64,000 nucleotides of DNA, taken from the IMG/VR virus record IMGVR_UViG_3300032334_001937, positions 32,001-96,000 of that record. One strand, 5' to 3'. This DNA comes from a virus. Shown in pieces: positions 12,701 to 63,127 of the stretch. The notes beneath the pieces are model-generated. The model saw only the letters and a program-made list of their open reading frames with translations, did no database searches and was not told the origin of the DNA. Both the position numbers and the translations under genes were made by a program. Numbering within the stretch: the first letter of the stretch is position 1; the number at the start of each line of letters is the position of its first letter.

Positions 12701-12852
12701 TTAGAATCTTGTATCTCTGAAGTACGGTGGTACAAAGTAAGGAGGTGTAACAAAGTCTGGAGGTACAACAAAGTATGGTGGCACAAAGTACGGTGGTACA
12801 AAGTAAGGGAAGTACGGACCGAAGCTTGGTGGGAAGAACGGGAAGAACGGTG
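12701..12852 (-). repeat. Pro/Phe/Tyr coding repeat, copy 1
   Basis: 12786-12852 matches 51847-51913 at 66/67 nt; 12701-12742 matches 51828-51869 at 39/42 nt. Confidence 0.9.
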
Positions 12853-14758
12853 TAACTGCACTACCGCAGCAACTCCATCCATTTGGAACATCAGTATATA
12901 TGTCAGATCCTCCAAGGCGTGTAAGTCCAAGTTCAGAGCATGTAGCATTTGTAGGATTTGTAATTGTTCCTGGGCAAGGGTTTGGTGTAGTAAAAGTTGG
13001 TGGAATTACAAATGTTGGCGGAATAACAAAAGTTGGTGGTGTTGAACCAAATGTTGGCGGAGTTGCTGGAATATAAGAAGTAATGGTTCCTGATGAATAT
13101 TGGCTTCCAGCTCCATATTGATTAGTTCCTTTAGCATAACCAATAAAAATATATGGTGGTGGTGTTGCATCATTTGTAGTTACTGTATAAGAAAGAGTAT
13201 TTGATGCTCCTGAACTTACTGCCTTTAAAACAGTATAAGTTCCCATAGTTGTTCCAGCGTAAATAGAAAGATCGTATGTTGTTACTGGACCTCCAAAATA
13301 TTCTGTAGCTGTCAAAGTAATTGCTGATCCTGCTGCACCAGTTCCACTAAGCACTGGAACCATTATAGGAAGTGAAGGTGGTGCATATTCATAATCATCA
13401 GCATAATATGTGGCTGACCAACCATATGAATTGTATGCAGTAATTTTATAAGTAGCAATATCTCCAGCTACATATGATGGAGACCAAGAGTCTGTTGTTG
13501 AACTTGTAGTATGAGTTACACTAGATTTATATGCCATGCTTTCATTGTATAAAGTCCACTCATATTTATATTGAGTTGGAGAATTTCCCCAGGATCCAGC
13601 ATAGGCAGTTAATGTTCCACCAGAATTTGTAATTTCTTCTTTTGTGCCTGTTGTGTATGGACGCAAATAACTAACTGGAGTTACCCCAACAGTATAAAAA
13701 TCAAAAGAATAAGAGGGAACTGTTTGTGAGGACATTGTGCTTGATTTAGTATCTGATCCTCCTGATAAACCACTTGTTGTATTATATGGTGTAACTGTTA
13801 CGCTTATTGTGTCTCCTGTATTTACTGAGCCTAAAGATATAGAAGTTCCTGTAGTTGTTGTATTTTGAGCTGTTCCACCATTAATAGAATAACTAATTTT
13901 ATATTGGTTTGCATTTGTTGAAGCGCTCCATTGAACTAAAAATGATCCACCAGTTCCAGCATACCCATATACACTTGCGTGTCCAGTTACATAAACTGTA
14001 CTTGAATAATCAATACTTGCAGTAACAGATCCAGCACTTGTATAAGTTTGCGGTGATGTTGGAGAAGTTGTATAATTTAATGTATTACTATCTGCCTCAA
14101 GCAACCATGAAATTACAATTGAAGAAACGTTTGTAAGATTTGACCAAGCCAAAGTAAATGTTCCTGCATTTGCTGACGATGAATATGTGCCTACGTTTGG
14201 AGAAAGCTGACCAGTTCCAGAAGGTATTGGAGTTACGATTAAACCAGTCAGATCTGATGGTGTGCCAATACTAATTGGCAATCCATTACTATCTTCTGTA
14301 GTAGATTCACCATTAATATTTGCTGTTGCTGTTACAGAAAATCTATAATATTGTGTTGTTGCAATAAAATCTGATTCATAAATAGTTAATGTTTTAGTTT
14401 GTCCATTTGATATAGATGCAGAAGTTCCAATGTCTGTCCAATCTACTCCATCAGCTGATATCTGAAAAATATAGGTTTGACTAATTGTTCCTCCACCAGA
14501 ATAAGTCCAGGTTCCGTTTGTTCCAGTCAAAACAAGCCTTTGAATATTTGATACAGTTGTCCAAGGTCCAGCACTGATGGTTGGTACTGTATTAATTTGT
14601 GGACCAGATCCTCCAGACTTTGGCCAAAATGCTCTCCATCCAGAATTTCCTTTTACAAATGCTTTTGTTACAGCATGCCAAGATCCATCAGAACCTTTAA
14701 CAAAAAACTTGGAAACTTTACTCCAAGAACCACCTGCTCCCTTTACAAAATACCCCAT
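12701..14758 (-). CDS. Ig/FN3-like virion accessory fibre protein with C-terminal Pro/Phe/Tyr repeat tag
   Basis: N-terminal triple FVKG..G.W repeat, Thr/Ser/Gly-rich beta domains, PPTF repeats, small Cys motif, tail PFFPFFPPSFGPYFPYFVPPYF...RDTRF; last gene of the tail operon. Confidence 0.7.
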   Translation of the reverse strand: MGYFVKGAGGSWSKVSKFFVKGSDGSWHAVTKAFVKGNSGWRAFWPKSGGSGPQINTVPTISAGPWTTVSNIQRLVLTGTNGTWTYSGGGTISQTYIFQISADGVDWTDIGTSASISNGQTKTLTIYESDFIATTQYYRFSVTATANINGESTTEDSNGLPISIGTPSDLTGLIVTPIPSGTGQLSPNVGTYSSSANAGTFTLAWSNLTNVSSIVISWLLEADSNTLNYTTSPTSPQTYTSAGSVTASIDYSSTVYVTGHASVYGYAGTGGSFLVQWSASTNANQYKISYSINGGTAQNTTTTGTSISLGSVNTGDTISVTVTPYNTTSGLSGGSDTKSSTMSSQTVPSYSFDFYTVGVTPVSYLRPYTTGTKEEITNSGGTLTAYAGSWGNSPTQYKYEWTLYNESMAYKSSVTHTTSSTTDSWSPSYVAGDIATYKITAYNSYGWSATYYADDYEYAPPSLPIMVPVLSGTGAAGSAITLTATEYFGGPVTTYDLSIYAGTTMGTYTVLKAVSSGASNTLSYTVTTNDATPPPYIFIGYAKGTNQYGAGSQYSSGTITSYIPATPPTFGSTPPTFVIPPTFVIPPTFTTPNPCPGTITNPTNATCSELGLTRLGGSDIYTDVPNGWSCCGSAVTPFFPFFPPSFGPYFPYFVPPYFVPPYFVVPPDFVTPPYFVPPYFRDTRF

Positions 14759-43195: not shown

Positions 43196-43280
43196 TTATT
43201 TACCTTTCATAGCAAAAATAAGTTAAGTACTTTGTAAATTCCAAAGTAGTTCCTAAGTATAGCACAGTTTAAAAAGAAAA

Positions 43281-43301
43281 ACACGCTCACAAAGAGCGTG
43301 T
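43281..43301 (-). terminator. intrinsic terminator ending the oxygenase operon
   Basis: ACACGCTC-N5-GAGCGTGT hairpin followed on the minus strand by TTTTCTTTTT. Confidence 0.8.
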
Positions 43302-43351
43302 CAATCTATAGTTTATAGTTAGTACTTTTGCAAAACAAAAGTAGTCTTACA

Positions 43352-43981
43352 TTATGAGATCCAGTGGTTTGGAACCATATACTTTAGTCCACTCTTAACA
43401 AGGTGTGCTGTATGATGGTAAGGTGGTGATGGCGGAAATACAATAATGCTTCCTGCTTTTGGTTTTACAGCAAATGTATAATTTCCAGTTCTTTCTGCTT
43501 CAGCAAAATCTGGGGTTGGTCCTGCTTGCTGCAAAATTCCATCAGGAGAAGAAATAGTAAATGATATTTCTCCGCCCTCATAATCATCATTAAGGTACAT
43601 GACAAAAGAAACCTTTAGTCTTTCATCTCCTTCTTGCTGATCAAAGTGAGCGCCCATAAATGTACCAGGTTCATATCTTTTTATTGGGTACATAGGAAAT
43701 AGCTTTGGCTCATCTGTAATTCCTTGTGCAGCTGCATAGTCTTTTGCTACAACATCAAAGGCATCTCTAATTGTATTATAGATATAGTTATTTTTTTCAT
43801 CATCATTCTCTGGAGTATAGATGGTCTTGTCTGTTCCATACACATAGTGCTGTCCACTACAGGCCATCCATTCACCCCAGGGATCTTCATTATCTTTGTC
43901 AATTGCCTCAACAAGTTTTTGAGGGTCTTGAATTACGTTTGTGTAATAGTAGACCTTTTCTTCAAGTATTTCTCTTTCCAT
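43352..43981 (-). CDS. 2OG-Fe(II) oxygenase, P4H-like (Lys type)
   Basis: HFD...YLNDDYEGGEI...HTAH...GLKY. Confidence 0.85.
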   Translation of the reverse strand: MEREILEEKVYYYTNVIQDPQKLVEAIDKDNEDPWGEWMACSGQHYVYGTDKTIYTPENDDEKNNYIYNTIRDAFDVVAKDYAAAQGITDEPKLFPMYPIKRYEPGTFMGAHFDQQEGDERLKVSFVMYLNDDYEGGEISFTISSPDGILQQAGPTPDFAEAERTGNYTFAVKPKAGSIIVFPPSPPYHHTAHLVKSGLKYMVPNHWIS

Positions 43982-43992
43982 TTTATATCTCC

Positions 43993-44652
43993 TTAGTATC
44001 TATTCTTTTCGTAGTGATCTTTTTCTCTAATGAAACCTACTATGACATATCTTATTGGTCCATCACCAACAAATCTTACTCCGTGTTCATATTTTTCAGT
44101 TCCTGGAAAAACCAATAAAGAACCTGGTTTTGGCTTTAGTTCTATGTCAAGATGTTCAAAGAAAAGTTCTCCATCTACATAGTCATCATTTAAATAAAGA
44201 ATTGTTGCATAGCGAATTGAGGGGTCTGTGTGCTGATCTGTATGTGATTTTAATTGAACCTTTTCCTGCATTCTTTGCATAGTTCCAAATCCACCAAGCT
44301 CTAAGCTGTCATCTAATTGTTTAACTAAAGAGTTTACTCTAGTATGAATTGTTCCAGTTACTTCATATTCAGTAATCTGCAAATTTTTATCATTCCAGTT
44401 TTTAGTAATTTCAAACTTACCTTCTGCAACTAAGTTATCAACATCATCTCTTCCAAACTTTTCAAGACAAAATCTTTTTAAGTTTTTTACATACTCTATT
44501 GACCAGTCTTCTTCTGGTCTTGTATTAATAATATCCCATAAAGATGCAAGTTCTTCTTTAGACAAAAAATCCTCTACAAGCAAAATTTCATCGTCAATAT
44601 CTGTACATTTAAAGTTATTTTTTTCAAATGACTCTTTTAAAAAATTAGACAT
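43993..44652 (-). CDS. 2OG-Fe(II) oxygenase, P4H-like (Arg type)
   Basis: HTD...YLNDDYVDGEL...HGV...IRY. Confidence 0.85.
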   Translation of the reverse strand: MSNFLKESFEKNNFKCTDIDDEILLVEDFLSKEELASLWDIINTRPEEDWSIEYVKNLKRFCLEKFGRDDVDNLVAEGKFEITKNWNDKNLQITEYEVTGTIHTRVNSLVKQLDDSLELGGFGTMQRMQEKVQLKSHTDQHTDPSIRYATILYLNDDYVDGELFFEHLDIELKPKPGSLLVFPGTEKYEHGVRFVGDGPIRYVIVGFIREKDHYEKNRY

Positions 44653-45403
44653 TATTCTCCAGATCCTCTATCTTGTACCTATTACCACTAGCATCTATTT
44701 TATACCCTTGTTTGATGAGCTCTTGCCATTCTGCTCTTTCAATCTCTTGCTTTGCCCTAGTTTCTTTCATTTCTGCTGCCCAAGCATCTCTTACCTCTTG
44801 TGGGTATGCAGATTCTTCTCTATCATCCCAGAAAGATCCGATTGTATATCTAATACCCTTGGTGATTAAAGAAACTTCATGCATATTATTAAAACCACCA
44901 TCAAATACTGCAAGCATTCCAACTTTAGGCTTAATTTCTATATCTTGATCTGGAAATTTTAAAAGTCCACCCTCAAAATCATCATTAAGGTATAAAAATC
45001 CTGCATATCTGCTTCTTGTAAATGCTCCAGAATTTCCATGCTCGTCTGTGTTGTCGGAGTGAATTCTTGCATATGCTCCTGGCTCCCATTTTTGAGTATG
45101 ATATCCAATCTTACAAATTGTTTTTGGATCAAGGTCGTGTACTGAAGCAATGGCTTCTGGCATAACTTTCTCAATATCAGAAAACATTGTAGGTGAAAGT
45201 CCAGCATCTAAAACTTCTTGATCATTATCTTGTGGAGTTACAGAAGAATATGATTCATAAAAAGATATTGGCATCCAAGAAAGCTTGCCGTTATGTGCTT
45301 GAGCATCTAGTGCTTGAATCATTTTTTTACAGTTTTCTTCAGAAATAAAGTTTTCGTAAACAACTATATCCTTTGTGATTCTTTTTTTATTATCTAGGTT
45401 CAT
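44645..45403 (-). CDS. 2OG-Fe(II) oxygenase, P4H-like (Arg type)
   Basis: HSD...YLNDDFEGG...HEV...GIRY. Confidence 0.85.
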   Translation of the reverse strand: MNLDNKKRITKDIVVYENFISEENCKKMIQALDAQAHNGKLSWMPISFYESYSSVTPQDNDQEVLDAGLSPTMFSDIEKVMPEAIASVHDLDPKTICKIGYHTQKWEPGAYARIHSDNTDEHGNSGAFTRSRYAGFLYLNDDFEGGLLKFPDQDIEIKPKVGMLAVFDGGFNNMHEVSLITKGIRYTIGSFWDDREESAYPQEVRDAWAAEMKETRAKQEIERAEWQELIKQGYKIDASGNRYKIEDLENNV

Positions 45404-46260
45404 CTTATTCTTCTCTCTTTGTCGGCATTAATTTTATTTGGATTCTTTTTTCTAAATTCTTCCATAATCTCTGACCATTCTTTGGCCCACTCTTCTTTTC
45501 CATAGTCAGCTTCTCTTTTGAGCCACATCTTGTCGCCAACTTCATACTTCATCCAGTACATTCTGGATAGATATTTTTTTGCTCCTCTTGGTGGGAGCAC
45601 TCCATGAATATAAACCTGATCATTTTTAGTCAATACATCTGGGTGGCCAGAAGGGAAAAGTAAGTAATCTCCAGCCTCTGGCTTATACATGTAGGCTTCA
45701 CCATCAACAATAAAATCAATCTCTCCACCCTCATAGTCATCATTAAAGTAAGCTAAAGCAGTTATAGCAAATTTATATCCTGGTGTTACCATTGGTTCTC
45801 TTACGTAGTCGGAATGATATGTCATTGCTACTGGATCTTCTATATCTTCTCTATATCTTGCTATTGACGGCCCATTGGTTTTCCATAATTTTACAGTATC
45901 ACCTTCATGGGTTGTGACCATTGCATCTTTATCAAAATCAACACTATTTCTAGATATATAGTCTTCAGTTGCTAAATAAAAGTTTTCAAAAAGTTCTACC
46001 ATTGCAGCTTTTTGCTCTTCGTCTTTTTCTGTTGCTGCTTCTACACTTTTAATTTCTTCTATGCTCATGGCACCTGGGCAACCTTTAAATAATGGATTAA
46101 GGTACTCTCCAAAACCAGACCATTGTGACCAAGGGCTAAGTATTGCATCTTTATCTTCATCTTTTAGGATTGAGAATGTTTTTGAAATATCTTTAAACAG
46201 ATTTTTATAAACAAATATCTTAGGATATATTTCAATACAGTCTAAAACCTTTTCTTTCAC
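45400..46260 (-). CDS. 2OG-Fe(II) oxygenase, P4H-like (Lys type)
   Basis: HSD...YFNDDYEGGEI...HGV...KKY. Confidence 0.85.
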   Translation of the reverse strand: MKEKVLDCIEIYPKIFVYKNLFKDISKTFSILKDEDKDAILSPWSQWSGFGEYLNPLFKGCPGAMSIEEIKSVEAATEKDEEQKAAMVELFENFYLATEDYISRNSVDFDKDAMVTTHEGDTVKLWKTNGPSIARYREDIEDPVAMTYHSDYVREPMVTPGYKFAITALAYFNDDYEGGEIDFIVDGEAYMYKPEAGDYLLFPSGHPDVLTKNDQVYIHGVLPPRGAKKYLSRMYWMKYEVGDKMWLKREADYGKEEWAKEWSEIMEEFRKKNPNKINADKERRIR

Positions 46261-46931
46261 GGCTTTCTATCTCCCGTATGCTCTGTAATTTCCCAGAAGA
46301 ACGGGCATGTATATCTAATACCACTCTTGATCTCTGTTACTCCATGGATATAGTTTTTATCCCCTGGGAAGAAATATGCTGCACCCTTTTTGGGCTTGAA
46401 CTGTACACCCTGTAATGGGAAGTATAGCTCTCCGCCTTCGTAGTCTTCATTCAAATAGAATAGGCTTGAAAGATCATAGTTTGGGAAATCATTAGGCAAG
46501 CCAGCATCTGGTCCCTCATGAAGTTCTTTATCTGCGTGAGGTTTTTGAAATTGTCCTGGAAGCCATCTAACAATAGTTGTTCCAGTAGGTGTAACCTTTA
46601 CCTTGTAGAACTCTTCAACAATTGGCTTTAGTCTTTGAAACAATCCTGCAATTACAGGAGCAATAGCTGGATCATTTTTATCTAATGTTGGACTAGTCGC
46701 TACTCTGTCTTTCCAATAATCTGAATCGTATACAACAGTTCCGTTTTCATTTACGTGACTCTGTGTTACATCCCAAATAGTTATAGACTTTGCAGCCTTT
46801 TCTAAAAAATCAATTTCTTCTTGTGTCATAAAGTTTTCTAGTTCAATAATCATTTCTTTTCCATTGCCAAACCAGCCCGAAGGGGTCATTGATGGTTTTC
46901 TAACTACTACTGAGGCATCCATATTATCCAT
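46257..46931 (-). CDS. 2OG-Fe(II) oxygenase, P4H-like (Arg type)
   Basis: HAD...YLNEDYEGGEL...HGV...GIRY; leaderless promoter 6 nt upstream. Confidence 0.85.
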   Translation of the reverse strand: MDNMDASVVVRKPSMTPSGWFGNGKEMIIELENFMTQEEIDFLEKAAKSITIWDVTQSHVNENGTVVYDSDYWKDRVATSPTLDKNDPAIAPVIAGLFQRLKPIVEEFYKVKVTPTGTTIVRWLPGQFQKPHADKELHEGPDAGLPNDFPNYDLSSLFYLNEDYEGGELYFPLQGVQFKPKKGAAYFFPGDKNYIHGVTEIKSGIRYTCPFFWEITEHTGDRKP

Positions 46932-46959
46932 AATAGCATTATATCATAGGCAAAAAATC

Positions 46960-47415
46960 CTATAATTCCCTTTCTATTTCTAGTTGTTTTAAAAATCTTT
47001 CTGGATTAAATCTCCAGTTATCTTTTGCAAAAGAAGTTACAATCTTGATACAAACATCTTCATAGTCTTCTTTTTTTAGCTTATTTTTAAGCCCATAAAG
47101 TGCATCAACTGTGTCTATATAGTTTTGCCTAACAAAAGATGGATCTCCCGCATGATTTCTTTTTAGCACTTTTGTTGTAACTTTTCCAGAAGGTTCGTAC
47201 AAAGAAACAGTTAAAAACTCTTTTGCAAAACCAGCATCCTGATACATTTCATATCCTTCTAAAGCTTGGCTTAAGCTATCAAAAGATATAATAGATCTTA
47301 CTGGCTTTTCACCATCTCTGGCAACAGTTATAATGTAATGACTTATTTTACCTAGCTTACAGTTTTCCACATATTCATTGACTATATCTGTGTGTATTGA
47401 GTTTAATTCACTCAT
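46960..47415 (-). CDS. hypothetical protein in modification cluster
   Basis: 151-aa ORF coupled to the upstream gene; no motif recognised. Confidence 0.6.
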   Translation of the reverse strand: MSELNSIHTDIVNEYVENCKLGKISHYIITVARDGEKPVRSIISFDSLSQALEGYEMYQDAGFAKEFLTVSLYEPSGKVTTKVLKRNHAGDPSFVRQNYIDTVDALYGLKNKLKKEDYEDVCIKIVTSFAKDNWRFNPERFLKQLEIEREL

Positions 47416-48128
47416 TATCTACCGTGGCCTGTTTGATCATCTACAAAAAGCTTTAAGGTTTTTACTTCATGAGAACCAAGAGATTCTTGTTTTTCATTAA
47501 CAGCATTTCTGTACCAATCTGTCCACTGACCACCAGAATTTACAACTTGTGCTGCTTCACCATAAGCTTTATTTGCTTCTACTCTTTTTCTATCTTCGTC
47601 CTTATAGTCAAAGATATTAATTACTGTATTGTTTAGGTTAGTCAGTGATATAGGAATCAACGTTGCAATTGGAGTTCCTGCCTTAATAACAACTTTTTTA
47701 TTTGCTACTTTTGCCTTAATTGCTAAGGGTAGTGGGTTATCATAAAAAGATGTACTTATTAAAGAAGACATAGTTTCAAACTCATCACTAAAATAATTTA
47801 CTGGATTAATAGAAAAAATGCTAACGTCTTGATCTGTTTTAAATATTAATCCAGTACTTAAACTTACAGAGGATTGCCCTCTTCCAGAGTATGCTGTTTT
47901 TGGATTAAATATTTCTACACGATCAGGCGTTTGATCATTAACTCCATCCCAAATAAACTCAATGTCTTCTTTGCAGGACAGACTATATCCAATAACATTT
48001 GCCTGTGTTACAGGGAAACATCTATATGCGTGATTTTCAGAAGTTTCATCCATCCAGTCTCTTTTAATTGACATTGAAGATATCTCAAAAATACAGTCTG
48101 GAGTTTTTTCAACTGAAATATTAAACAT
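47415..48128 (-). CDS. DUF6065-like protein (dUTPase-like fold)
   Basis: RDWMDET...HAYRCFPVTQANVIGY and IKAGTPIATLIP motifs. Confidence 0.65.
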   Translation of the reverse strand: MFNISVEKTPDCIFEISSMSIKRDWMDETSENHAYRCFPVTQANVIGYSLSCKEDIEFIWDGVNDQTPDRVEIFNPKTAYSGRGQSSVSLSTGLIFKTDQDVSIFSINPVNYFSDEFETMSSLISTSFYDNPLPLAIKAKVANKKVVIKAGTPIATLIPISLTNLNNTVINIFDYKDEDRKRVEANKAYGEAAQVVNSGGQWTDWYRNAVNEKQESLGSHEVKTLKLFVDDQTGHGR

Positions 48129-48779
48129 TTAGTCTTCTACATACATTTCTGCAGTATGGAACTTTTTGTTGTAGTCAAGCATGGTTACAATAGAATATTT
48201 TGTTCCAGAGTGAACTGGCATTGCCTGGTGTGGATACATAAAGTTTGAAGGGAAGATAAATAGATCTCCTGCTTCTGGCTTTATCTTTAAGTCTTGAAGT
48301 CTAAAGTATAGCTCTCCGCCTTCGTAGTCATCGTTTGGATAAGCAACTAATGATACTGTGCAGTTATAAGAGAACCCATGATCATGGTGCTCCTTAAAGT
48401 GCTGACCTGGACCATACTTAATAAAGTTAAATGCTTCCCAGTACTTTAGCTCTCCCAGATTATAGTCTTTGCAGTAATCCTGTACTGCTGGAGCTTGAAC
48501 ATCATAAACATCTTGCCATAGTGACTGTAGAGCAAGTGACTGTGGGCGTGTATCATGTTCAAGATTTTCCTTCTTAAACTTAAAATCAACACAGTCTCTA
48601 TATTCTGGCATTAGCTGACGGTATCCAACATATGCTGGCAACCAGCTATACTTTGTTTCATCTCCAACTTGGCCTAAGTTAGACTCAAGTCTATTAACAA
48701 CATCAATTTCTTTCTTAATTACATTCTTATAGCAATGAATTCCATTACCAAGATTAACTTTGTCAGTCCAAGTGCTCAT
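48129..48779 (-). CDS. 2OG-Fe(II) oxygenase, P4H-like (Lys type)
   Basis: HHD...YPNDDYEGGEL...PHQA...GTKY; close paralog of 49553..50266. Confidence 0.85.
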   Translation of the reverse strand: MSTWTDKVNLGNGIHCYKNVIKKEIDVVNRLESNLGQVGDETKYSWLPAYVGYRQLMPEYRDCVDFKFKKENLEHDTRPQSLALQSLWQDVYDVQAPAVQDYCKDYNLGELKYWEAFNFIKYGPGQHFKEHHDHGFSYNCTVSLVAYPNDDYEGGELYFRLQDLKIKPEAGDLFIFPSNFMYPHQAMPVHSGTKYSIVTMLDYNKKFHTAEMYVED

Positions 48780-48788
48780 TTTTTCTCC

Positions 48789-49556
48789 TTATTTATATTC
48801 TCTTCTTGTCCAAATTTGATTCTTGTAAACACCACCATCGGGTTTACGATAAAAAGTTGCATTCTCTACCATTTTATCATACATATCTTTTTGATTTAGA
48901 ATTTCAACTTCATTTTCCCAGTTTTCTCTCTTAAACGGTAAGATCTGTACGTATGGAGTTCCAGCTGGGATGGTTCCTTCCCAATCTTGTGCGATAAAGA
49001 ATGGAAGACTTCCAATTAATTCAACCTTATCAGAATCAACAACCCCAGTTGTATTCATGAAAGGAAGATCAAACCTATTCATTGGAGTCATAAATAGTGA
49101 ACTATATCCTTCTGGTAGTCCTAGTGACCATTCTGACTGCCAAGCAAAATGTTCTTTATAGAATCCTTTTGGATGCTCAAACTGTGGCATAGGCGGTCTC
49201 TTAGTACAAAAATCTTTATGCTTTTCATCAACTACCTTAACATCAATTTTTCCATTACTATCTTTAAAAAATTGAATATCACATGGAGTTAGTAAAACAT
49301 AACCAGTTGAAAATCCATCCATAATAGCAGGACATGCTTTCCAGGTAGGAACCTTGCCATAATCATTTGTTGTTCCTTCTTTTGGAAAAGGACAAACCTG
49401 ATTATTTGCTGGAAAGTATTCCCCTGTGTAAGGATTCTTTGCAAATCTATCTGCATCTTTATACCAATCTGGAATTACCTTTTGTGTAGGCAATGGTACA
49501 GAAATACTATCTTTTTTTAACCAAGGACGAAAAGCTTTAAATATTACTTTGTTCAT
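48789..49556 (-). CDS. DUF6065-related / dUTPase-fold protein
   Basis: IPDWYK, TWKACPAIMDGFSTGY, GVVDSD, IPAGTPYVQILPF. Confidence 0.55.
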   Translation of the reverse strand: MNKVIFKAFRPWLKKDSISVPLPTQKVIPDWYKDADRFAKNPYTGEYFPANNQVCPFPKEGTTNDYGKVPTWKACPAIMDGFSTGYVLLTPCDIQFFKDSNGKIDVKVVDEKHKDFCTKRPPMPQFEHPKGFYKEHFAWQSEWSLGLPEGYSSLFMTPMNRFDLPFMNTTGVVDSDKVELIGSLPFFIAQDWEGTIPAGTPYVQILPFKRENWENEVEILNQKDMYDKMVENATFYRKPDGGVYKNQIWTRREYK

Positions 49557-50266
49557 TTATGACTTAACTCATTAATATCTGTCATAATAACAACACAATA
49601 TTTTGTGCCAGATTCCATTGGAAGGGATGCATGCTCATAGATATAGTTTGAAGGGAATACTGCAATATCTCCAACCTTTGGCTTGTATACTAAATTATCA
49701 AGTCTTGGAAACTTTAAGTCTCCTCCAACATAGTCATCATTAATGTAGATAACAGCAGACACTGTGCAGTTATATGCTGGACCGTGATCTGCGTGAATAT
49801 TGAAGTGTGTACCTTCACCCTCATATTTTACAAAATTAAATGCTTCATAGTAAACAACATTAATGCCCCAATAACGTGCATAGTCATCTATACAAACCTT
49901 TAGCTTTTGATAAATCTCTTCATGTAGGTCAACAAGCTCTGCATTTGATTCATCCTTTGGTCCAAGGTCAGATTGCTTGTATTTAAAATCAACACAATCT
50001 CTAGCCTTTTTAATTGGAGTGGTAGAGTTGGTTACTTGAGCTTCATTCCATTTATACTTTTTGCCTCCTGAAAGATTTGACTCAAGCACATTGATATAAC
50101 GCTTTGAGTCTTCTTCAGAAAAAACATTATGGTAAACATTTAGGCCTAATCCTGGATTACTAACAGATATCCCTTTATCAGGCAAGGCTCTTGCTACTCT
50201 GCTAGAAGCAGTCTCTGATCTATCCTTAGTAAACCATGGATTTTCGTTTTCATTATATATATCCAT
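49553..50266 (-). CDS. 2OG-Fe(II) oxygenase, P4H-like (Lys type)
   Basis: HAD...YINDDYVGGDL...EHAS...GTKY. Confidence 0.85.
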   Translation of the reverse strand: MDIYNENENPWFTKDRSETASSRVARALPDKGISVSNPGLGLNVYHNVFSEEDSKRYINVLESNLSGGKKYKWNEAQVTNSTTPIKKARDCVDFKYKQSDLGPKDESNAELVDLHEEIYQKLKVCIDDYARYWGINVVYYEAFNFVKYEGEGTHFNIHADHGPAYNCTVSAVIYINDDYVGGDLKFPRLDNLVYKPKVGDIAVFPSNYIYEHASLPMESGTKYCVVIMTDINELSHK

Positions 50267-50297
50267 TTATCCCCCGTGTAATTTAGCTATATGTAAA

Positions 50298-50329
50298 AGT
50301 ATATCATATAAGAGGAAATACTGTATAAT
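50298..50329. promoter_or_regulatory. back-to-back divergent promoters
   Basis: Minus strand TGATATACT at 50306-50298; plus strand TATAAT at 50324-50329, 6 nt before ATG 50336. Confidence 0.65.
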
Positions 50330-50335
50330 CTTTAT

Positions 50336-51253
50336 ATGAAGACTATATATGTTTCAATAGCAGCATACAATGAGCCACACCTTGACCTTATGCTATCAAA
50401 TTGTTTAGAAAATGCAGAATACCCAGAGCGTGTACATTTTGGAATTTGGTGTCACTATAATGATAATACCAGGCCTAATTTTGATAAATATAAAAATGTA
50501 ATGCATGCATTTACAGATTACCCCGCAATGCTTGGACTTTGTATTGGCAGGTTAAACTCTTTGTCTTTTTATAATGGAGAAGACTATTGCCTTCAACTTG
50601 ATGCTCATATGCTTTTTGAAAAAAATTGGGATACAAAAATAATTAATGCTTTTGAAGAAATAAAAAGGGAACATGAAAAACCAATCATATCAACCTATGT
50701 TCCTTGGTGGTCAATATCAAATAATATAATTAATTATTACAGTAATGATGCAAATGTGTATTGCTCTCCAATGATTATAAATAAAGCTATTGGAAATGGC
50801 GAAGGATACCCAAAACTTACAACAGAACATTTTCCCTGGGATAAAGAGGTTTATAAAGAACATGCACTAGTCACTGGTCATTTTATATTTTCTGAACCAT
50901 CTGTACTTGAAGATGTATCTCCAGATCCACAAGTAATGTTTGGTGGAGATGAAATAACATTAGCATTAAGACTTTGGACAAGAGGCTATAGAATTTTTAC
51001 CATCAAAAATCCAATAGTTTGGCATTTAAATAAATTTGATGGTGATCTATACTCAAAAGATCGTTTAATGAGAGCAGAAACCCCAGGAAGAGAAACAGAG
51101 CTTCATGGCAAAAGAAGTTATACCAGTATGCAAAGAGTAAAAAATATTTTAACTGGTAAAATACTTGGTTATTGGGGAGCTCCAACAATAGAAAAATTAA
51201 AAGAATTTGAAAAAGTAATTGATCTTGATTTTAATAAGTTTTATGAAGGTTAA
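50336..51253 (+). CDS. glycosyltransferase, Skp1 hydroxyproline GlcNAc-transferase (Gnt1/GT60)-like
   Basis: IYVSIAAYNEP...AEYPERVHFGI...GR...YNGEDYCLQLDAHMLFEKNWD...FGGDEITLALRLWTRGY match the GT60-like motif pattern. Confidence 0.75.
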   Translation: MKTIYVSIAAYNEPHLDLMLSNCLENAEYPERVHFGIWCHYNDNTRPNFDKYKNVMHAFTDYPAMLGLCIGRLNSLSFYNGEDYCLQLDAHMLFEKNWDTKIINAFEEIKREHEKPIISTYVPWWSISNNIINYYSNDANVYCSPMIINKAIGNGEGYPKLTTEHFPWDKEVYKEHALVTGHFIFSEPSVLEDVSPDPQVMFGGDEITLALRLWTRGYRIFTIKNPIVWHLNKFDGDLYSKDRLMRAETPGRETELHGKRSYTSMQRVKNILTGKILGYWGAPTIEKLKEFEKVIDLDFNKFYEG

Positions 51254-51819
51254 AGAGCATATTCTTTAGAAGATATCCACATTGGGATAGCATATCTTGT
51301 TTTATTAATTTTATCTATCTCATGAGCAAAAATTTTTCCTTCAGATGGAAAAAATACAAAATCTCCTACTTTTGGATTATACTCAAAATCAGCAAACGGA
51401 AACCTCAATATACCTGTATCCTCTAATGAGTTCAGATATATGATTCCACTGTACATAAACTGTGGATTAATGCCTTTATCTACGTCTTCGTGTAATCGTA
51501 ATACTGATCCTGGACAATGCTTAGAGAACCATAGGTTTGATACTGCTATATCTGTTTTATTATAAAATTTACCTATTTGATTAATTACCCTTGGAAAAAT
51601 TTTATCTTTAAAATAGTGATTAAGATGATTATGCTTGCTAAAGTCTTCAAAAGAGTTTTGAAACAAAAAATCTTTTCCATACTTTAAAGCATATCTTTTA
51701 TTGTTTTGGGTTGATTCAAAAACTTCTAAATTATTTTCAATAAAGTCTATAATGCGAGAAGCCTCATCTTCCGTTATAAAGTTATTTATAACTTGGATGA
51801 GGCCCCCCGACTGACTCAT
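51250..51819 (-). CDS. 2OG-Fe(II) oxygenase, P4H-like (Arg type)
   Basis: HED...IIYLN...AHEI...TRY; starts 8 nt after the stop of the repeat-tailed gene. Confidence 0.8.
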   Translation of the reverse strand: MSQSGGLIQVINNFITEDEASRIIDFIENNLEVFESTQNNKRYALKYGKDFLFQNSFEDFSKHNHLNHYFKDKIFPRVINQIGKFYNKTDIAVSNLWFSKHCPGSVLRLHEDVDKGINPQFMYSGIIYLNSLEDTGILRFPFADFEYNPKVGDFVFFPSEGKIFAHEIDKINKTRYAIPMWISSKEYAL

Positions 51820-51827
51820 GCTACTTC

Positions 51828-52055
51828 TTAGAATCTTGTATCACGGAAGTACGGTGGTACGAAGTAAGGGAAGTACGGACCGAAGCTTGGTGGGAAGAAC
51901 GGGAAGAACGGTGGGAAGAACGGGAAGTACGGGAAGTACGGTGGGAAGAATGGGAAGTACGGTGGGAAGAACGGGAAGTACGGGAAGTACGGTGGGAAGA
52001 ATGGGAAGAATGGAGGGAAGAATGGGAAAAATGGTGGGAAGAATGGAAAGAACGG
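51828..52055 (-). repeat. Pro/Phe/Tyr coding tandem repeat, copy 2
   Basis: Tandem 9- and 12-nt units (plus strand ggaagaacg / ggaagtacg / ggtgggaagaa), all in frame. Confidence 0.9.
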
Positions 52056-52676
52056 TGCAATAGTAGTAACACTAGATGTAGTAGTTGATGCTGAAGTTCC
52101 TAGAGCATTGATAGCAACAATTGTATATGTTTGAGCAGCTGGTGATGCAGCAGAAGGTGTATTATCAGCAGCATCATAGGAAGTTGCTGAACCAGAAATT
52201 CCAGTAAAGTTTCCTCCATCAGATGAAGTAATTGTATATGATGTAATAGCACTACCACCAGTTGCAGGAGCAGTCCAGCTAATCCGATTAAGGTTTGCAG
52301 AAACTGTAGTTGCGCTCACTGACTGTGGTGTTTGTGGTACTGTGGTAATAGCAATTGCAGAAGAAGGATCAGAAGCTTGTGATGTTCCAGCTGCGTTTGT
52401 TGCTGTTACTGTAAAAGTTACAGATGCATTAGCAGTAATACCAGACACAGTAACTGGAGAAGAAGCTCCAGTTCCAGTTTGACCTGTGCTTGCTGTTACT
52501 GTAAAGGATGTTGCAGCAGGGGATAGCACAGGTAAAGAGAAGGAAACAGTTGCTTGACCATCACCATAAGCACGACCTGTTCCTGTATTAGTTGCAGATA
52601 CGCCTGTAGGCTTTAGTGGCTCCAAGAAATCGTTTGATGCCTGGGAGTGTCTTCCTGCTTTTTTACCTGATGCCAT
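51828..52676 (-). CDS. two-FN3-domain protein with 75-aa Pro/Phe/Tyr repeat tail
   Basis: FN3 signatures (PTGVSAT, FTVTATNAAGTS, ISWTAPATGGSAITSY, YTIVAINALG), then (P)P[FY]F repeats ending RDTRF. Confidence 0.8.
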   Translation of the reverse strand: MASGKKAGRHSQASNDFLEPLKPTGVSATNTGTGRAYGDGQATVSFSLPVLSPAATSFTVTASTGQTGTGASSPVTVSGITANASVTFTVTATNAAGTSQASDPSSAIAITTVPQTPQSVSATTVSANLNRISWTAPATGGSAITSYTITSSDGGNFTGISGSATSYDAADNTPSAASPAAQTYTIVAINALGTSASTTTSSVTTIAPFFPFFPPFFPFFPPFFPFFPPYFPYFPFFPPYFPFFPPYFPYFPFFPPFFPFFPPSFGPYFPYFVPPYFRDTRF

Positions 52677-52698: not shown

Positions 52699-55512
52699 TT
52701 ATGCTGTCAAGTCGCCGTAAACAACCCATGTATTTGTAGCTCTCTTGAAAAGAGTTGCAGATGACCATTGAGTTCTTAGCTTTAGACCTGGTGTTGCGTT
52801 TACTGTAACTCCAGTATCTCCTGCGATTGTTACCTGACCTGTTGAAGTCTGAAGGATATCAATTGATGTTCCGACTGGATAAGCAACTGCTGAGTTTGTT
52901 GGAATTGTGATAGTTGTTCCTGATGAAGATGCTACTTCAACAAGGCTATCTCTTTCTGTAAGTGATGAAAGTGTGTATGATGCTGTCTTCTGTACGATTG
53001 GTGTCCGTGAAGGAACGCCTTCCTTTGTCTGTGTACCGTCTGTAAATGCCACTCCAGATGCTGCAACTGTTACAAGACCTGTAAATGTTGGAGCATTGAT
53101 TGGTGACTTAGCAGCAAGGTCAGATGTTAAACCTGAAATCTTTGACTGTGCAATTGCTGCTGATGCGTTTACATCTGCATCTACGATTGCTCCATCAGCG
53201 ATCATTGCTGAAGTAACTCCACCAGTTGCAATATCAAGTGTTCCTGGTGTAGATTCTGTTAGACCAGAACCTGCTGTTACAGCCTTAGCAGCGTTGTATG
53301 CTACGTAGGTAATATTGCTTGAACCAATTGTGATTGCTGATGTGTTAGAACATACGTAACCGTATCCTGCACCAGCTGTACCTTCAAGTACGAGACAGAA
53401 GTCTCCGCCTGCAAGCTCACCTGATGGAGTATTATCTGCATCAGCTGCACGAGACCATGTTGAAGCATTTACAACGTAGATACCGTTTGTCTTCTGGTCT
53501 GTCTGGTCCTTAACAAGAACACGGTCACCAGCAATTACTGATACTCCGTCAATTGTCTGTGTTCCGCTTAGTGTAATATTTGCTGTTGTAGCAACACGAA
53601 CTGGCTGGTGGAAGTTAATTCCAGAAACTACGTTATCAACGTATGCCTTTGTTGCTGCATGTAGGTCTGCTGATGGAGCACCTGCAAGAGTAAGATCTCC
53701 TGTCATTGTTCCGCCAGACTTTGACAACTTAGCATCAAGCTGTGTTTGAATTGCTGATGTTACACCGTCAACATAGCCAATTTCAGTAGCTGAAACATTT
53801 CCAATTGAAGTAGTACTTGGAAGAACTACAGTTCCTGTAAATGTTGGGTCTGCCTTTGGAGCCTTAAGATCAAGTGCTGTCTGTGTAGCAGTTGAAACTG
53901 GCTTATTTGTATCTGATGTGTTGTCAGCATTTCCAAGACCAACATCTGACTTTGTAATACCAGTTGGTGTATTAATAACTGGTGATGTTAAAGTCTTGTT
54001 TGTAAGAGTTTCTGTCTTAGTTGCAGTTGACTTAGCATCAAGCTGTGTCTGGATTGCAGAAGTAACACCATCAAGGTATCCAATTTCTGTGTCAGAAACA
54101 CCTGAAACTACTGCTTGCTTTCCATTAAGCTGTGTTTGGATAGAAGATGTAACTCCATCAACATATCCAAGCTCTGTTGCAGATACTGTTGAAGATACTG
54201 CTAGCTTTGTCCAGTCAATCGCAGCTGATGCATTAATGTCAGCGTTTACGATTGTGTCATTAGCAATCATTGTGCTTGTGACTGTACCTGTATCTGTTGT
54301 TGCAACAAGGTTAGCTGTATTTGAAATTCCGTGAACAGCAGTTGTATCTGAGTTATGTGTGCCAATTGCATCATCAGCATAAGTCTTTGTTGCTACTGTT
54401 GAGTCAATATCAATTGTAAGTGTGTTTGATGCGTCATCGTAGTTATGCTGTAGTCCAGTACCTGAATTTAATGCACCAGCAATTGAGTCAACTGCAAGTT
54501 CACCAACATACTCTGAGTCAATGGCAAAACGATCATTGTCTGCATCCCAAGAAAGTCCTGTACCAACAAGGCCAGGGTAATCATTTGATACTCCACTAAC
54601 AGCACTTGATACATAATCTTGTGTTGCAAGTGTTCCGCTTGCATCTGGAAGTGTAACTGTTCTATCTGCAGTTGGATCTATTACTGAAAGTGTAGTTTCA
54701 AAACCATCTGCTGTTGCACCTTCAAAAATTACCTGGTTATTTACGTTAATAGCTGTGCTGTTTACTGTAGTTGTAGTACCGTTTACAGTTAGGTTACCAG
54801 AAAGTGTTAAATCTGCTGCATTAACAGTACCTGTAAATGTTGGGTTTGCCTTTGGTGCTTTAAGATCAAGAGCTGTTTGTGCAGCTGATGAAACTGGCTT
54901 ATTTGCGTCAGATGTATTATCTACGTTGCCAAGACCTACTGAAGACTTTGTAAGTGCTGCAACTGCAGTTGATACTGCTCCGTCAGCATAAGTCTTTGTA
55001 GCAAGTGCTGAAGTATCAGCGATTCCATGAATATTAGTTGTATCTGCTTCGTGGTTTGAAAGAGCAGTATTTGAAGCCTTTGCATCAAGAGCAGTTTGTG
55101 TTGCTGTTGAGACTGGCTTATTAGCATCTGAAGTATTGTCTACATTGCCAAGTCCAACGTGTGACTTTGTAACACCAGAAACTGTTCCTGTAAATGTTGG
55201 GTTAGCCTTTGGAGCCTTAAGGTCAAGGCTTGTTGAAAGTGTTGTAAAGAATGCTGGATCATCATTGATTGCTGCTGCAAGTTCATTAAGAGTATTTAAT
55301 GCTCCTGGTGCTCCATCAATAAGGTCATTAATTCCTGCAAGTGCACTTTCAGCATCTGTGAAGTAAGTAAGGTCAGCCCAGTGATTTGTGCCATCACCAA
55401 TCTTAAATTTATTTGTGTCTGATTCCCAGCCGATTTCTCCTGCGTTGAGAATTGGGTTAGCGCCTGACCACTGTGATGCGGTTCCTCTGCGCTGTTGCAT
55501 TCTAGTTGCCAT
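52699..55512 (-). CDS. long fibre protein (Mtd/hyaluronidase-like N terminus, internal repeats)
   Basis: MQQRRGTASQW..ANPIL..GEIGWESDT.KFKIGDG; 3x VGLGNxDNTSDxNKPVS, 3x KAPKAxPTFTG, 3x ExGYxDGVTSxIQTQL. Confidence 0.8.
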   Translation of the reverse strand: MATRMQQRRGTASQWSGANPILNAGEIGWESDTNKFKIGDGTNHWADLTYFTDAESALAGINDLIDGAPGALNTLNELAAAINDDPAFFTTLSTSLDLKAPKANPTFTGTVSGVTKSHVGLGNVDNTSDANKPVSTATQTALDAKASNTALSNHEADTTNIHGIADTSALATKTYADGAVSTAVAALTKSSVGLGNVDNTSDANKPVSSAAQTALDLKAPKANPTFTGTVNAADLTLSGNLTVNGTTTTVNSTAINVNNQVIFEGATADGFETTLSVIDPTADRTVTLPDASGTLATQDYVSSAVSGVSNDYPGLVGTGLSWDADNDRFAIDSEYVGELAVDSIAGALNSGTGLQHNYDDASNTLTIDIDSTVATKTYADDAIGTHNSDTTAVHGISNTANLVATTDTGTVTSTMIANDTIVNADINASAAIDWTKLAVSSTVSATELGYVDGVTSSIQTQLNGKQAVVSGVSDTEIGYLDGVTSAIQTQLDAKSTATKTETLTNKTLTSPVINTPTGITKSDVGLGNADNTSDTNKPVSTATQTALDLKAPKADPTFTGTVVLPSTTSIGNVSATEIGYVDGVTSAIQTQLDAKLSKSGGTMTGDLTLAGAPSADLHAATKAYVDNVVSGINFHQPVRVATTANITLSGTQTIDGVSVIAGDRVLVKDQTDQKTNGIYVVNASTWSRAADADNTPSGELAGGDFCLVLEGTAGAGYGYVCSNTSAITIGSSNITYVAYNAAKAVTAGSGLTESTPGTLDIATGGVTSAMIADGAIVDADVNASAAIAQSKISGLTSDLAAKSPINAPTFTGLVTVAASGVAFTDGTQTKEGVPSRTPIVQKTASYTLSSLTERDSLVEVASSSGTTITIPTNSAVAYPVGTSIDILQTSTGQVTIAGDTGVTVNATPGLKLRTQWSSATLFKRATNTWVVYGDLTA

Positions 55513-62394: not shown

Positions 62395-62588
62395 GTGATG
62401 TAAGTTTTGGTGATTGGCTTAAACCTTCTACGCCTAGAGCCAGTGAGGATCTCATTGAATCCCGCTTTAAAATTTGCTCTGAGTGTGAGTTTTTTAAGAA
62501 GAATGGATCCCGCTGCAAATTGTGCCATTGCTTTATGAAGCTTAAAACCGAACTATTACATGCTAGGTGTCCAATAGGCAAATGGTAA
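62391..62588 (+). CDS. six-Cys small protein (DUF6171-like)
   Basis: RFKICSECEFF...CKLCHCFM.LKT.L..ARCPIGKW; paralog of 12447..12662. Confidence 0.65.
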   Translation: MSDVSFGDWLKPSTPRASEDLIESRFKICSECEFFKKNGSRCKLCHCFMKLKTELLHARCPIGKW

Positions 62589-63127
62589 TTGATACTGGCT
62601 ATTTTGGAACTTCTTCTAATAAGATACTTAAGATTGATAGCATTGCGTCTAAAGACGAGTTGGATTTTATTGTATCTTCCGTTGCAAATATAGACGTTTG
62701 GGATATTGATAATCAGCCAGATGTTTGGACAAATAGAGTAAGCGATCCAGATAAACTGTTTGAGCATGCAAACCAAGCATATGCGTTAATTGAAGAAATA
62801 CAATTAAGGTTTATGGATGAAGTAACAAAATTTTATAATGTAAAAGTTGAAGACCCTAGACCATCAATTGCTAGATGGTTTGTCGGAAACTCACAAGAAC
62901 CTCATGCGGATAAAACACACTATCCAGACTATGATATTGGATCTGTCATTTATTTAAATAATGAGTATGAAGGTGGTGAGATTTACTTCCCCCAGCATAA
63001 TATAGAGCTTAGGCCAAGCGCAGGAAATGCTATTGCCTTTCCAGGAGATGAGTATTATATGCATGGCGTTAGAGAGATTGTTTCTGGATTTAGGTATACC
63101 CTGCCTATTTTCTGGAAAGTTATATAA
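62567..63127 (+). CDS. 2OG-Fe(II) oxygenase, P4H-like (Arg type)
   Basis: PHADK...YLNNEYEGGEIYF...HGV...GFRYTLPIFW; close paralog of 46257..46931. Confidence 0.85.
   Translation: MSNRQMVIDTGYFGTSSNKILKIDSIASKDELDFIVSSVANIDVWDIDNQPDVWTNRVSDPDKLFEHANQAYALIEEIQLRFMDEVTKFYNVKVEDPRPSIARWFVGNSQEPHADKTHYPDYDIGSVIYLNNEYEGGEIYFPQHNIELRPSAGNAIAFPGDEYYMHGVREIVSGFRYTLPIFWKVI

Follow-up and report, generated by a model that had tools for sequence, protein, structure and literature searches.

We analyzed a 64,000-nucleotide window of viral DNA (bases 32001-96000 of the 112,019-bp IMG/VR virus record IMGVR_UViG_3300032334_001937, which has direct terminal repeats) and focused on an island at positions 43352-52676. 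The island joins a protein ending in a tail of proline, phenylalanine, and tyrosine to an array of eight oxygenases of the 2-oxoglutarate (2OG)-Fe(II) type, resembling prolyl 4-hydroxylases (P4H). We found that such tails and such arrays are linked well beyond chance in related phages and are gained or lost together. On balance, the array probably hydroxylates the Pro/aromatic tails of two fiber-associated proteins, with the first oxygenase (OX1) and a glycosyltransferase of family GT60 serving as an optional glycosylation add-on. Carried by a lineage of freshwater phages, the island is accessory and is flanked by a tail-fiber gene and a ribonucleotide reductase (RNR) gene.

The island starts behind a gene for a 937-amino-acid (aa) tail-fiber-like protein (52699..55512, minus strand; Mtd_N, E = 9e-12; many tail-fiber PHROGs). 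This gene is its 5' border and stands directly upstream of the tail gene, as fiber homologs do in nearly all related loci. The tail gene (51828..52676, minus; tail at 51831-52055) encodes the candidate substrate, a 282-aa protein with a fibronectin type III (FN3) domain (fn3, E = 3.5e-9). It is followed by OX1 (51250..51819, minus; 189 aa; PF13640, E = 8e-7) and, on the plus strand, by the GT60 gene (50336..51253; 305 aa). The other genes are again on the minus strand: OX2, the first core oxygenase of the array (49553..50266; 237 aa; E = 5e-10); DUFa, a dUTPase-fold protein with an invariant Cys (48789..49556; phrog_7084, E = 5e-35); OX3 (48129..48779; 216 aa; E = 5e-15); DUFb, a DUF6065 paralog of DUFa (47415..48128); a gene for a 151-aa protein (46960..47415); OX4 (46257..46931; 224 aa; E = 3e-9); OX5 (45400..46260; 286 aa; E = 2e-6); OX6 (44645..45403; 252 aa; E = 3e-8); OX7 (43993..44652; 219 aa; E = 3e-10); and OX8, the last gene of the unit (43352..43981; 209 aa; E = 6e-11), where the E values for oxygenases refer to PF13640. 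The 151-aa protein is accessory to the array: some relatives have it and others do not. It had no match in Pfam or PHROG, and the ESM Atlas gave only viral hypothetical clusters for it.

Behind OX8 lies a terminator-like hairpin (43280..43302, minus; 9-bp stem with 5 GC pairs, then a T-run), at the place where a terminator had been predicted (43281), and then come a class II RNR gene and head genes. This hairpin is the sole strong minus-strand terminator-like site (9 pairs); the three sites inside the unit are weak (5 to 6 pairs). Thus, the fiber gene, the tail gene, and the array appear to be one unit closed by the hairpin. Pfam, PHROG, and fold checks bore out in full the gene content given in the original prediction: the FN3 tail, eight oxygenases, the GT60 enzyme, two DUF6065 proteins, one protein without assignment, and the terminator.

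The tail is unusual in composition. Our recount of the final 75 aa of the FN3 protein gave 32 Phe, 28 Pro, and 8 Tyr, which agrees with the 68 Pro/Phe/Tyr residues (28 Pro) described before. The repeat type in the window is PFF/PPYF, and the family consensus is a hexapeptide, [A/S/G]-P-P-x-F-F (xPPxFF). The FN3 part is rich in Ser and Thr. The genome encodes a second tail-bearing virion protein (12701..14758, minus; 685 aa), with four PPTF units, a Cys mini-domain, a PFF/VPPYF tail, and an RDTRF cap. Its gene is 39 kb from the first, and both proteins end in RDTRF. The two genes are identical at 66 of 67 nucleotides in one stretch (12786-12852 and 51847-51913) and at 39 of 45 at the very end; outside the shared tail stretches, the two proteins are unrelated. 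The 66/67 match points to gene conversion or to a shared recognition element.

We also compared codon use in the tail (51831-52055) with that in the neighboring enzyme genes (43352-51819). The tail uses TTC over TTT 30 to 2 and TAC over TAT 8 to 0, and CCG encodes 12 of its 28 Pro residues. The corresponding counts in the enzyme genes are 24 to 111, 41 to 97, and 7 of 125. This bias suggests that selection acts on how the repeat is translated or that it disfavors runs of T. Upstream, the repeat shares its frame with the FN3 domain; downstream, in 44 of 96 family members, it shares its frame with a C-terminal domain. Given this continuity with FN3 and, for roughly half of the relatives, with a Hint domain whose fold is confidently predicted, and given the strong selection on its codons, the reading frame of the tail is real.

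All eight array oxygenases scored above the gathering cut-off of PF13640 (28.9 to 56.6 bits; cut-off, 27), as a search proposed with the original prediction had anticipated. Including five further copies, the genome holds 13 such oxygenases, and all 13 keep the Fe(II) triad HxD/E...H and, about 10 residues past the distal His, a Lys or Arg as the basic 2OG-binding residue. In their alignment, H131 and H184 are invariant, D133 is nearly so, and the Lys/Arg precedes Y195. All 13 also share the motif Y-x-N-x5-G-G-x3-F (Y-L-N-D-D-Y-E-G-G-E-L-x-F). When a profile of the 13 was compared with the PDB, the best matches were the Bacillus anthracis P4H (3itq/5iax; 5e-15), P3H1 (2e-12), and the PBCV-1 P4H (1e-10), and PHD2, the lysyl hydroxylases, and TET ranked below these collagen-type matches. 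NCBIfam gave only far sub-threshold matches (PKHD-type, AlkB, and YhhC at E = 0.01), and a PDB sequence search with OX1 found no match. By this profile comparison, the array enzymes most closely resemble collagen-type peptidyl-prolyl hydroxylases.

The array oxygenases are 18 to 43% identical to OX3, the alignment reference. Paralogs in the window are mostly 30 to 43% identical to one another, and OX7 is 51% identical to an oxygenase outside the array. In close relatives, OX2 to OX8 have collinear orthologs at 47 to 92% identity. Enzyme by enzyme, orthologs are 63 to 80% identical for OX2, 52 to 77% for OX3, 52 to 92% for OX4, 33 to 48% for OX5, 40 to 87% for OX6, 63 to 64% for OX7, and 55 to 65% for OX8. 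In a distant genome (G002), OX3 to OX6 find collinear best matches at 33 to 52%, and OX2, OX7, and OX8 are without a clear ortholog. These identities indicate that the array is old and ordered rather than recently duplicated and that the seven core oxygenases, OX2 to OX8, diverged anciently. The original prediction had gone on to assign different oxygenases to different positions, or to the hydroxylation of Phe or Tyr; such matching is speculation.

The proposal that tails co-occur with P4H arrays held when we searched for the tail by itself. This search returned 11 loci, and in all 11 the FN3-tail gene is followed at once by 7 to 10 oxygenases together with DUFa and DUFb. A DNA pattern of three PPxFxx units occurs in at least 120 stretches in IMG/VR. 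Among the matches listed, 57 repeat open reading frames (ORFs) have at least 1.5 kb downstream, and a same-strand oxygenase lies within 3 kb of 46 and within 300 bp of 23. The exceptions among the 57 are unrelated chance matches, second large tail proteins, and short Cys-knot ORFs. The fiber-tail-oxygenase module also recurs on unrelated phage backbones. Related portal and capsid genes are missing from two genomes, G001 (170 kb) and G008 (205 kb). G001 carries a fiber gene, an FN3-(APPTFT)n gene, an oxygenase, GT60, and more oxygenases, and G008 carries two fiber-tail modules; oxygenases and DUFb accompany one of them, and an oxygenase and a split GT60 accompany the second. In G002, the fiber, tail, and array stay together and both DUF genes are kept, with the RNR gene 14 kb away.

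The pattern of absence agrees with that of presence. Among portal relatives at 73 to 96% identity, we examined 28 loci with a closed slot between the fiber and RNR genes. The tail, oxygenases, and DUF6065 are absent together from 25 of them, and 21 of these 25 hold only about 150 bp at that place. As a control, 596 Gb of bacterial genomes yielded about 20 PPxFF simple repeats with no oxygenase nearby; the only two oxygenase-bearing loci there are both members of the same phage family. As a separate observation, two contigs binned in Bacteroidia/Bacteroidetes metagenome-assembled genomes (L237 and L242) carry the fiber-tail-oxygenase-DUF module and are probably misbinned phage contigs. Isolated phages gave no match to the cluster or the tail protein in megablast and tblastn searches, although the low-complexity filter may hide tails.

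DUFa and DUFb accompany the oxygenases in many of these loci. DUFb matched PF19541 (E = 2e-24). DUFa had no Pfam match, falls in the same PHROG as DUFb, and is 21% identical to it; C75 is invariant in both. The model of DUFa (mean predicted local distance difference test [pLDDT] score, 74) had as its top 22 PDB representative chains only dUTPase/dCTP-deaminase folds, namely, dUTPases, dCTP deaminases, and two herpesvirus dUTPase-related proteins (Z, 6.0 to 10.0). The next two chains score lower, with a Z of 5.6 for Tlp20 (rank 23) and of 3.9 for rank 24, and the Foldseek E value was about 4e-3. DUFa is thus predicted to have a dUTPase fold, which upholds the earlier assignment of the pair as DUF6065/dUTPase-fold-like. 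It contains G-V-V-D-S-D and G-T-P-x-A-Q, which resemble dUTPase motifs 3 and 4, respectively. DUFb is without the Asp motif, and PF00692 had no match in the whole genome at E ≤ 1, so no canonical dUTPase was found.

Several observations weigh against hydroxylation of the tail by the array. The five PF13640 genes outside the array, all with intact sites, are away from any Pro-Phe tail (genome positions 1131-2530, 4670-5326, and 109494-110114 [L001 and L002] and window positions 62567-63127, plus strand). The second tail gene is 39 kb from the array. No tail-oxygenase fusion was present among 421 oxygenase ORFs. One relative (L165:6204-7013) has in the slot an FN3 protein with a short tract of five PPPF units and a Cys-knot and no oxygenase, which makes it the single clear example of a tail that lacks an adjacent array. 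In two others (L174:3291-7132 and L183:3282-7122), the slot contains a 371-aa protein and three DUF6065 genes with neither oxygenase nor Pro-Phe tail, and therefore DUF6065 can act without the oxygenases. DUF6065 homologs adjoin RNR genes in the haloarchaeal virus HF2 (L150, 48119-49003) and the cyanophage S-RIM4 (L151, 158324-159118), which hints at nucleotide chemistry. GT60 is present in none of the 11 loci found through the tail and in few others. Most of the linked loci belong to one broad lineage with shared fiber genes, and the counts are not independent events; independent support for the linkage rests on the few backbones and on the pattern of gain and loss. Finally, a similar array has been read differently. 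In cyanophage Syn9, gp41 to gp54 include many tandem divergent 2OG-Fe(II) dioxygenases beside tail-fiber-related genes, and these, with a dUTPase-fold Cys protein, were interpreted as a pathway of secondary-metabolite synthesis for which no substrate was proposed (Iyer, Abhiman, de Souza, and Aravind, NAR 2010, PMC2938197).

The Syn9 reading leads to the alternative that survives best. The array could make or alter a small molecule or a nonribosomal or free peptide, or consume 2OG to steer host metabolism, while the tail is structural and both simply share a hypervariable site behind the fiber gene. Roles related to 2OG have been proposed for cyanophage oxygenases (Sullivan et al. 2010), and PhyH, a luciferase-like monooxygenase, and an AurF-like N-oxygenase occur in or near the arrays of relatives. 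The five oxygenases distant from any tail would also fit. We nevertheless consider this alternative unlikely. The window cluster has no nonribosomal peptide synthetase, halogenase, transporter, or other scaffold-forming gene; the tail protein is the sole nonenzyme partner kept across three backbones; tail and array are lost jointly; and the profile is nearest to peptidyl-prolyl hydroxylases. Several divergent 2OG dioxygenases in tandem and a dUTPase-fold protein with a conserved Cys are common to Syn9 and the window, and Syn9 gp43 (L152) is a DUF6065 homolog located between the Trp halogenases and the 2OG oxygenases. However, Syn9 has two Trp halogenases and a JmjC (MINA-type) enzyme, for which the window cluster gave no Pfam matches, and no Pro/aromatic repeat protein has been noted there, whereas the array in the window consists solely of P4H-type enzymes and comes with a candidate protein substrate.

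Alternatively, the oxygenases could hydroxylate proteins other than the tail protein, either host translation or regulatory proteins or the tail fiber itself. P4H-type enzymes with host-type targets are established: bacterial PPHD acts on EF-Tu, and OGFOD1/Tpa1 acts on ribosomal protein S23. PHD2 and the Pseudomonas PPHD (4iw3) were among our PDB matches, and a fiber gene is always beside the module. Still, 25 close relatives keep the fiber and have neither oxygenases nor tail; therefore, the oxygenases follow the tail and not the fiber. A single host target would hardly explain seven conserved divergent paralogs, and the unit is co-oriented with structural genes. We regard this alternative as quite unlikely. 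Modification of nucleotides or DNA beside RNR, with the dUTPase-fold protein acting on a pyrimidine nucleotide, the oxygenases oxidizing the base, and the glycosyltransferase glycosylating it, is very improbable: the fold and motif-like stretches of DUFa, the lack of a canonical dUTPase, the DUF6065-RNR neighborhoods in HF2 and S-RIM4, and one weak Tet_JBP match of a single oxygenase, below the Pfam cut-off, speak for it, but the profile matches of the oxygenases are to P4H rather than to TET/JBP, AlkB, or thymine hydroxylases, the array and both DUF genes of G002 stay with the tail at a distance from RNR, DUFb has no Asp motif, and GT60 enzymes are polypeptide N-acetylglucosamine (GlcNAc) transferases by their Pfam description.

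We return to hydroxylation of the tails, for which the following sequence of events is proposed. The oxygenases would be made together with the fiber genes and would hydroxylate several repeat positions on both the FN3-tail protein and the second tail-bearing protein. Prolines would be the first candidates, and other side chains are possible. A very hydrophobic tract could in this way become a polar, extended rod or an adhesive tip on a fiber-associated protein. OX1 and GT60 would then add a sugar, by family precedent GlcNAc, to a hydroxyl of the same protein, and relatives would use alternative add-ons from the same slot, namely, a sulfotransferase with an Asp/Asn beta-hydroxylase, a methyltransferase, or a fusion of glycosyltransferase and oxygenase. 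A predicted complex of OX2 (alignment A3) with the 80-aa tail scored 0.00 without controls and carries no weight either way.

The claim that the phage encodes the substrate together with its tailoring enzymes therefore stands in part. The tail and the P4H-type array are co-located and gained or lost jointly, but GT60 cannot be counted as a core component. The family assignment is firm: the search proposed earlier with PF11397 gave 118 bits (E = 8.5e-34; cut-off, 21). Seven GT60 relatives, the most distant at 33% identity, all keep Q-x-D-A-H-M-L-F-E-K-N-W-D and W-H unchanged; D-A-H is the GT60 motif, corresponding to the GT-A metal motif D-x-H. An oxygenase adjoins GT60 in every locus that has it (nine IMG/VR loci and G008; adjacency only), and OX1 has no ortholog in arrays lacking GT60. 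Since OX1 is without an ortholog where GT60 is absent, the two make up a separate accessory cassette. GT60, which had been expected to co-occur with the tail as an integral part of the system, occurs in a minority of loci, as an accessory cassette always accompanied by an oxygenase of its own. The split GT60 of G008 consists of two ORFs, of 99 and 181 aa (L154:4936-5770), and a frameshift, a pseudogene, or an assembly error is possible. Among isolated phages, GT60 matched only two Xanthomonas jumbo phages, at 27 to 28% identity, and PDB searches with the single GT60 sequence and with a profile gave no match.

Hydroxyproline, Tyr, and Ser/Thr of the FN3 part are all candidate acceptors for GT60, and we cannot tell them apart; the presence of GT60 followed no clean pattern with the Tyr or Ser/Thr content of the tail. 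GT60 enzymes include Thr-specific ones. Since this is so and since the FN3 part is rich in Ser and Thr, a GlcNAc step on tail hydroxyproline of the Skp1 type, as predicted originally by analogy, is doubtful. In the Skp1 pathway of Dictyostelium and Toxoplasma, PhyA and the GT60 enzyme Gnt1 pair a P4H with a GT60; here, the two kinds of gene are adjacent. Unlike that pathway, the phage system is not eukaryotic, and its oxygenases match collagen-type P4H better than PHD-type enzymes. Skp1 had no match in Pfam and PHROG scans of the cluster proteins, with no search made using a Skp1 profile. The window system may work like the PhyA-Gnt1 pathway, and we do not claim membership in it.

Relatives differ in what they carry between the tail gene and the array (examples are L024:3929-5872, L084:4350-5072, L051:1482-2087, L018:4074-5612, L048:6981-7775, and L064:9367-10476). 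Seven loci have a sulfotransferase and an Asp/Asn beta-hydroxylase in this slot. Other slot genes encode methyltransferase-like, luciferase-like monooxygenase, and AurF-like oxygenase proteins; in L018, a glycosyltransferase-like domain is fused to the OX2 ortholog; and PhyH is found in or near the array of some relatives. By analogy, the slot fits decoration of a hydroxylated protein. Bacterial operons in which beta-hydroxylase, PhyH, and sulfotransferase genes accompany collagen-like or tail-collar proteins have been predicted to be hydroxylate-then-decorate systems whose substrate is the repeat protein encoded with them (Iyer et al. 2010, PMC2938197). Those operons are cellular and concern Gly-rich collagen-like repeats; what they share with the phage relatives is the sulfotransferase and the Asp/Asn beta-hydroxylase.

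The tails of relatives also differ in how they end. In 44 of the 96 family members, a C-terminal domain of 155 to 180 aa begins with a Cys directly after the last repeat (for example, L027:3360-3908 in G002, L030:1064-1579, L035:8643-9158, and about 40 more loci). Many of these domains finish in H-N plus 0 to 5 residues, and some are without H-N. Pfam called the domain only below threshold, and its identity was settled by a fold search: the model (pLDDT, 86) matched BIL2 of Tetrahymena (6e-7), a Clostridium thermocellum bacterial intein-like (BIL) domain, inteins, and the hedgehog HhC domain. About half of the related tails are thus predicted to end in an intein-like BIL/Hint self-processing domain, which suggests self-cleavage, ligation, or thioester chemistry at the end of the repeat. 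The other family members end in a Cys-knot or a short charged cap (RDTRF in the window and SDPRK). In one locus (L024:2603-3910), the repeat is followed by a Hint-like domain and then by a terminal ...IRDTK cap similar to RDTRF; the domain looks like an intein-like insertion inside the tail.

The layout had also been likened to a cluster for a ribosomally synthesized and posttranslationally modified peptide (RiPP). We found neither leader/follower logic nor RiPP-typical cleavage in the window. The repeat is fused to a structural FN3 protein, and no protease or RiPP recognition element-like Pfam match was present in the cluster. A short conserved C-terminal cap (RDTRF or SDPRK) is present, and relatives have a Hint domain; neither defines a RiPP. 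Only tentatively do we extend the picture to the lake phages as a group, which would build a novel type of posttranslationally tailored appendage: a Pro/aromatic hexapeptide rod on fiber-associated proteins would be hydroxylated at multiple sites by at least seven dedicated P4H-type enzymes and optionally glycosylated, sulfated, or methylated, and in many relatives its C terminus would be activated by BIL/Hint for cleavage or covalent attachment.

Pro-rich repeats and a collagen-type P4H are found in one genome elsewhere. The PBCV-1 P4H (5c5t) acts on viral PAPK repeats, and the B. anthracis P4H (3itq) acts on the GPP repeats of collagen-like BclA. Each of those systems has a single enzyme, encoded away from the repeat gene, and neither includes a dUTPase-fold protein, whereas in the window an entire array adjoins a repeat of the xPPxFF family. 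Mycobacteriophage glycosyltransferases reportedly decorate C-terminal extensions of virion proteins. Those are Ser/Thr-type O-glycans on capsid and tail-tube proteins, made without hydroxylases, in contrast to the oxygenase array described here. Plant extensins and mussel foot protein 1 have Pro/Tyr repeats that are hydroxylated and then glycosylated or used for adhesion; their repeats are not homologous to the phage tails and offer an analogy only for the possible product.

Genes for 2OG-Fe(II) oxygenases in multiple copies are among the commonest unexplained genes of aquatic phages, and published readings of phage enzymes of this type comprise DNA repair, 2OG balance, and secondary metabolites. 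A literature search, incomplete in its coverage, for phage prolyl hydroxylases with hydroxyproline, GT60, or tail fibers found no description of Pro-Phe tails or of any association between them and oxygenase arrays. The GT60 cassette and the pair of tails with their apparent gene conversion are new features of this window. Also new are the findings that GT60 is accessory, that many related tails have BIL/Hint ends, that the tailoring slot varies, that some relatives have an empty slot, and that the codons of the tail are biased. The system offers a concrete, testable protein substrate encoded beside the enzymes. If hydroxylation of the tails is correct, the abundant phage 2OG-oxygenase arrays, which have lacked an agreed role since 2007-2010, would gain their first protein substrate. 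Tails that are both hydroxylated and decorated would bring chemistry like that of extensins or mussel glue onto virions, with a bearing on adsorption, host range, and the stickiness of particles; in that case, the array would also be a source of peptide hydroxylases of differing specificity for biotechnological use. The BIL/Hint ends of relatives suggest a further covalent step.

The genome carries a WhiB gene, and its portal protein is 45% identical to that of Streptomyces BE-cluster phages. Together these make an actinobacterial host likely, and the host is probably an actinobacterium. A few 150-nucleotide contigs of one RNA library map to OX2, OX8, the tail, and the fiber; given how small this fraction is and the possibility of DNA carry-over, we did not count them as evidence of expression. 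The lake lineage is very abundant, with at least 593 portal relatives in IMG/VR. Almost identical DNA is present in lake and freshwater metagenomes from several studies, and a 27-kb lake contig covers 43200-53060 at about 94% identity, including the GT60 and tail genes.

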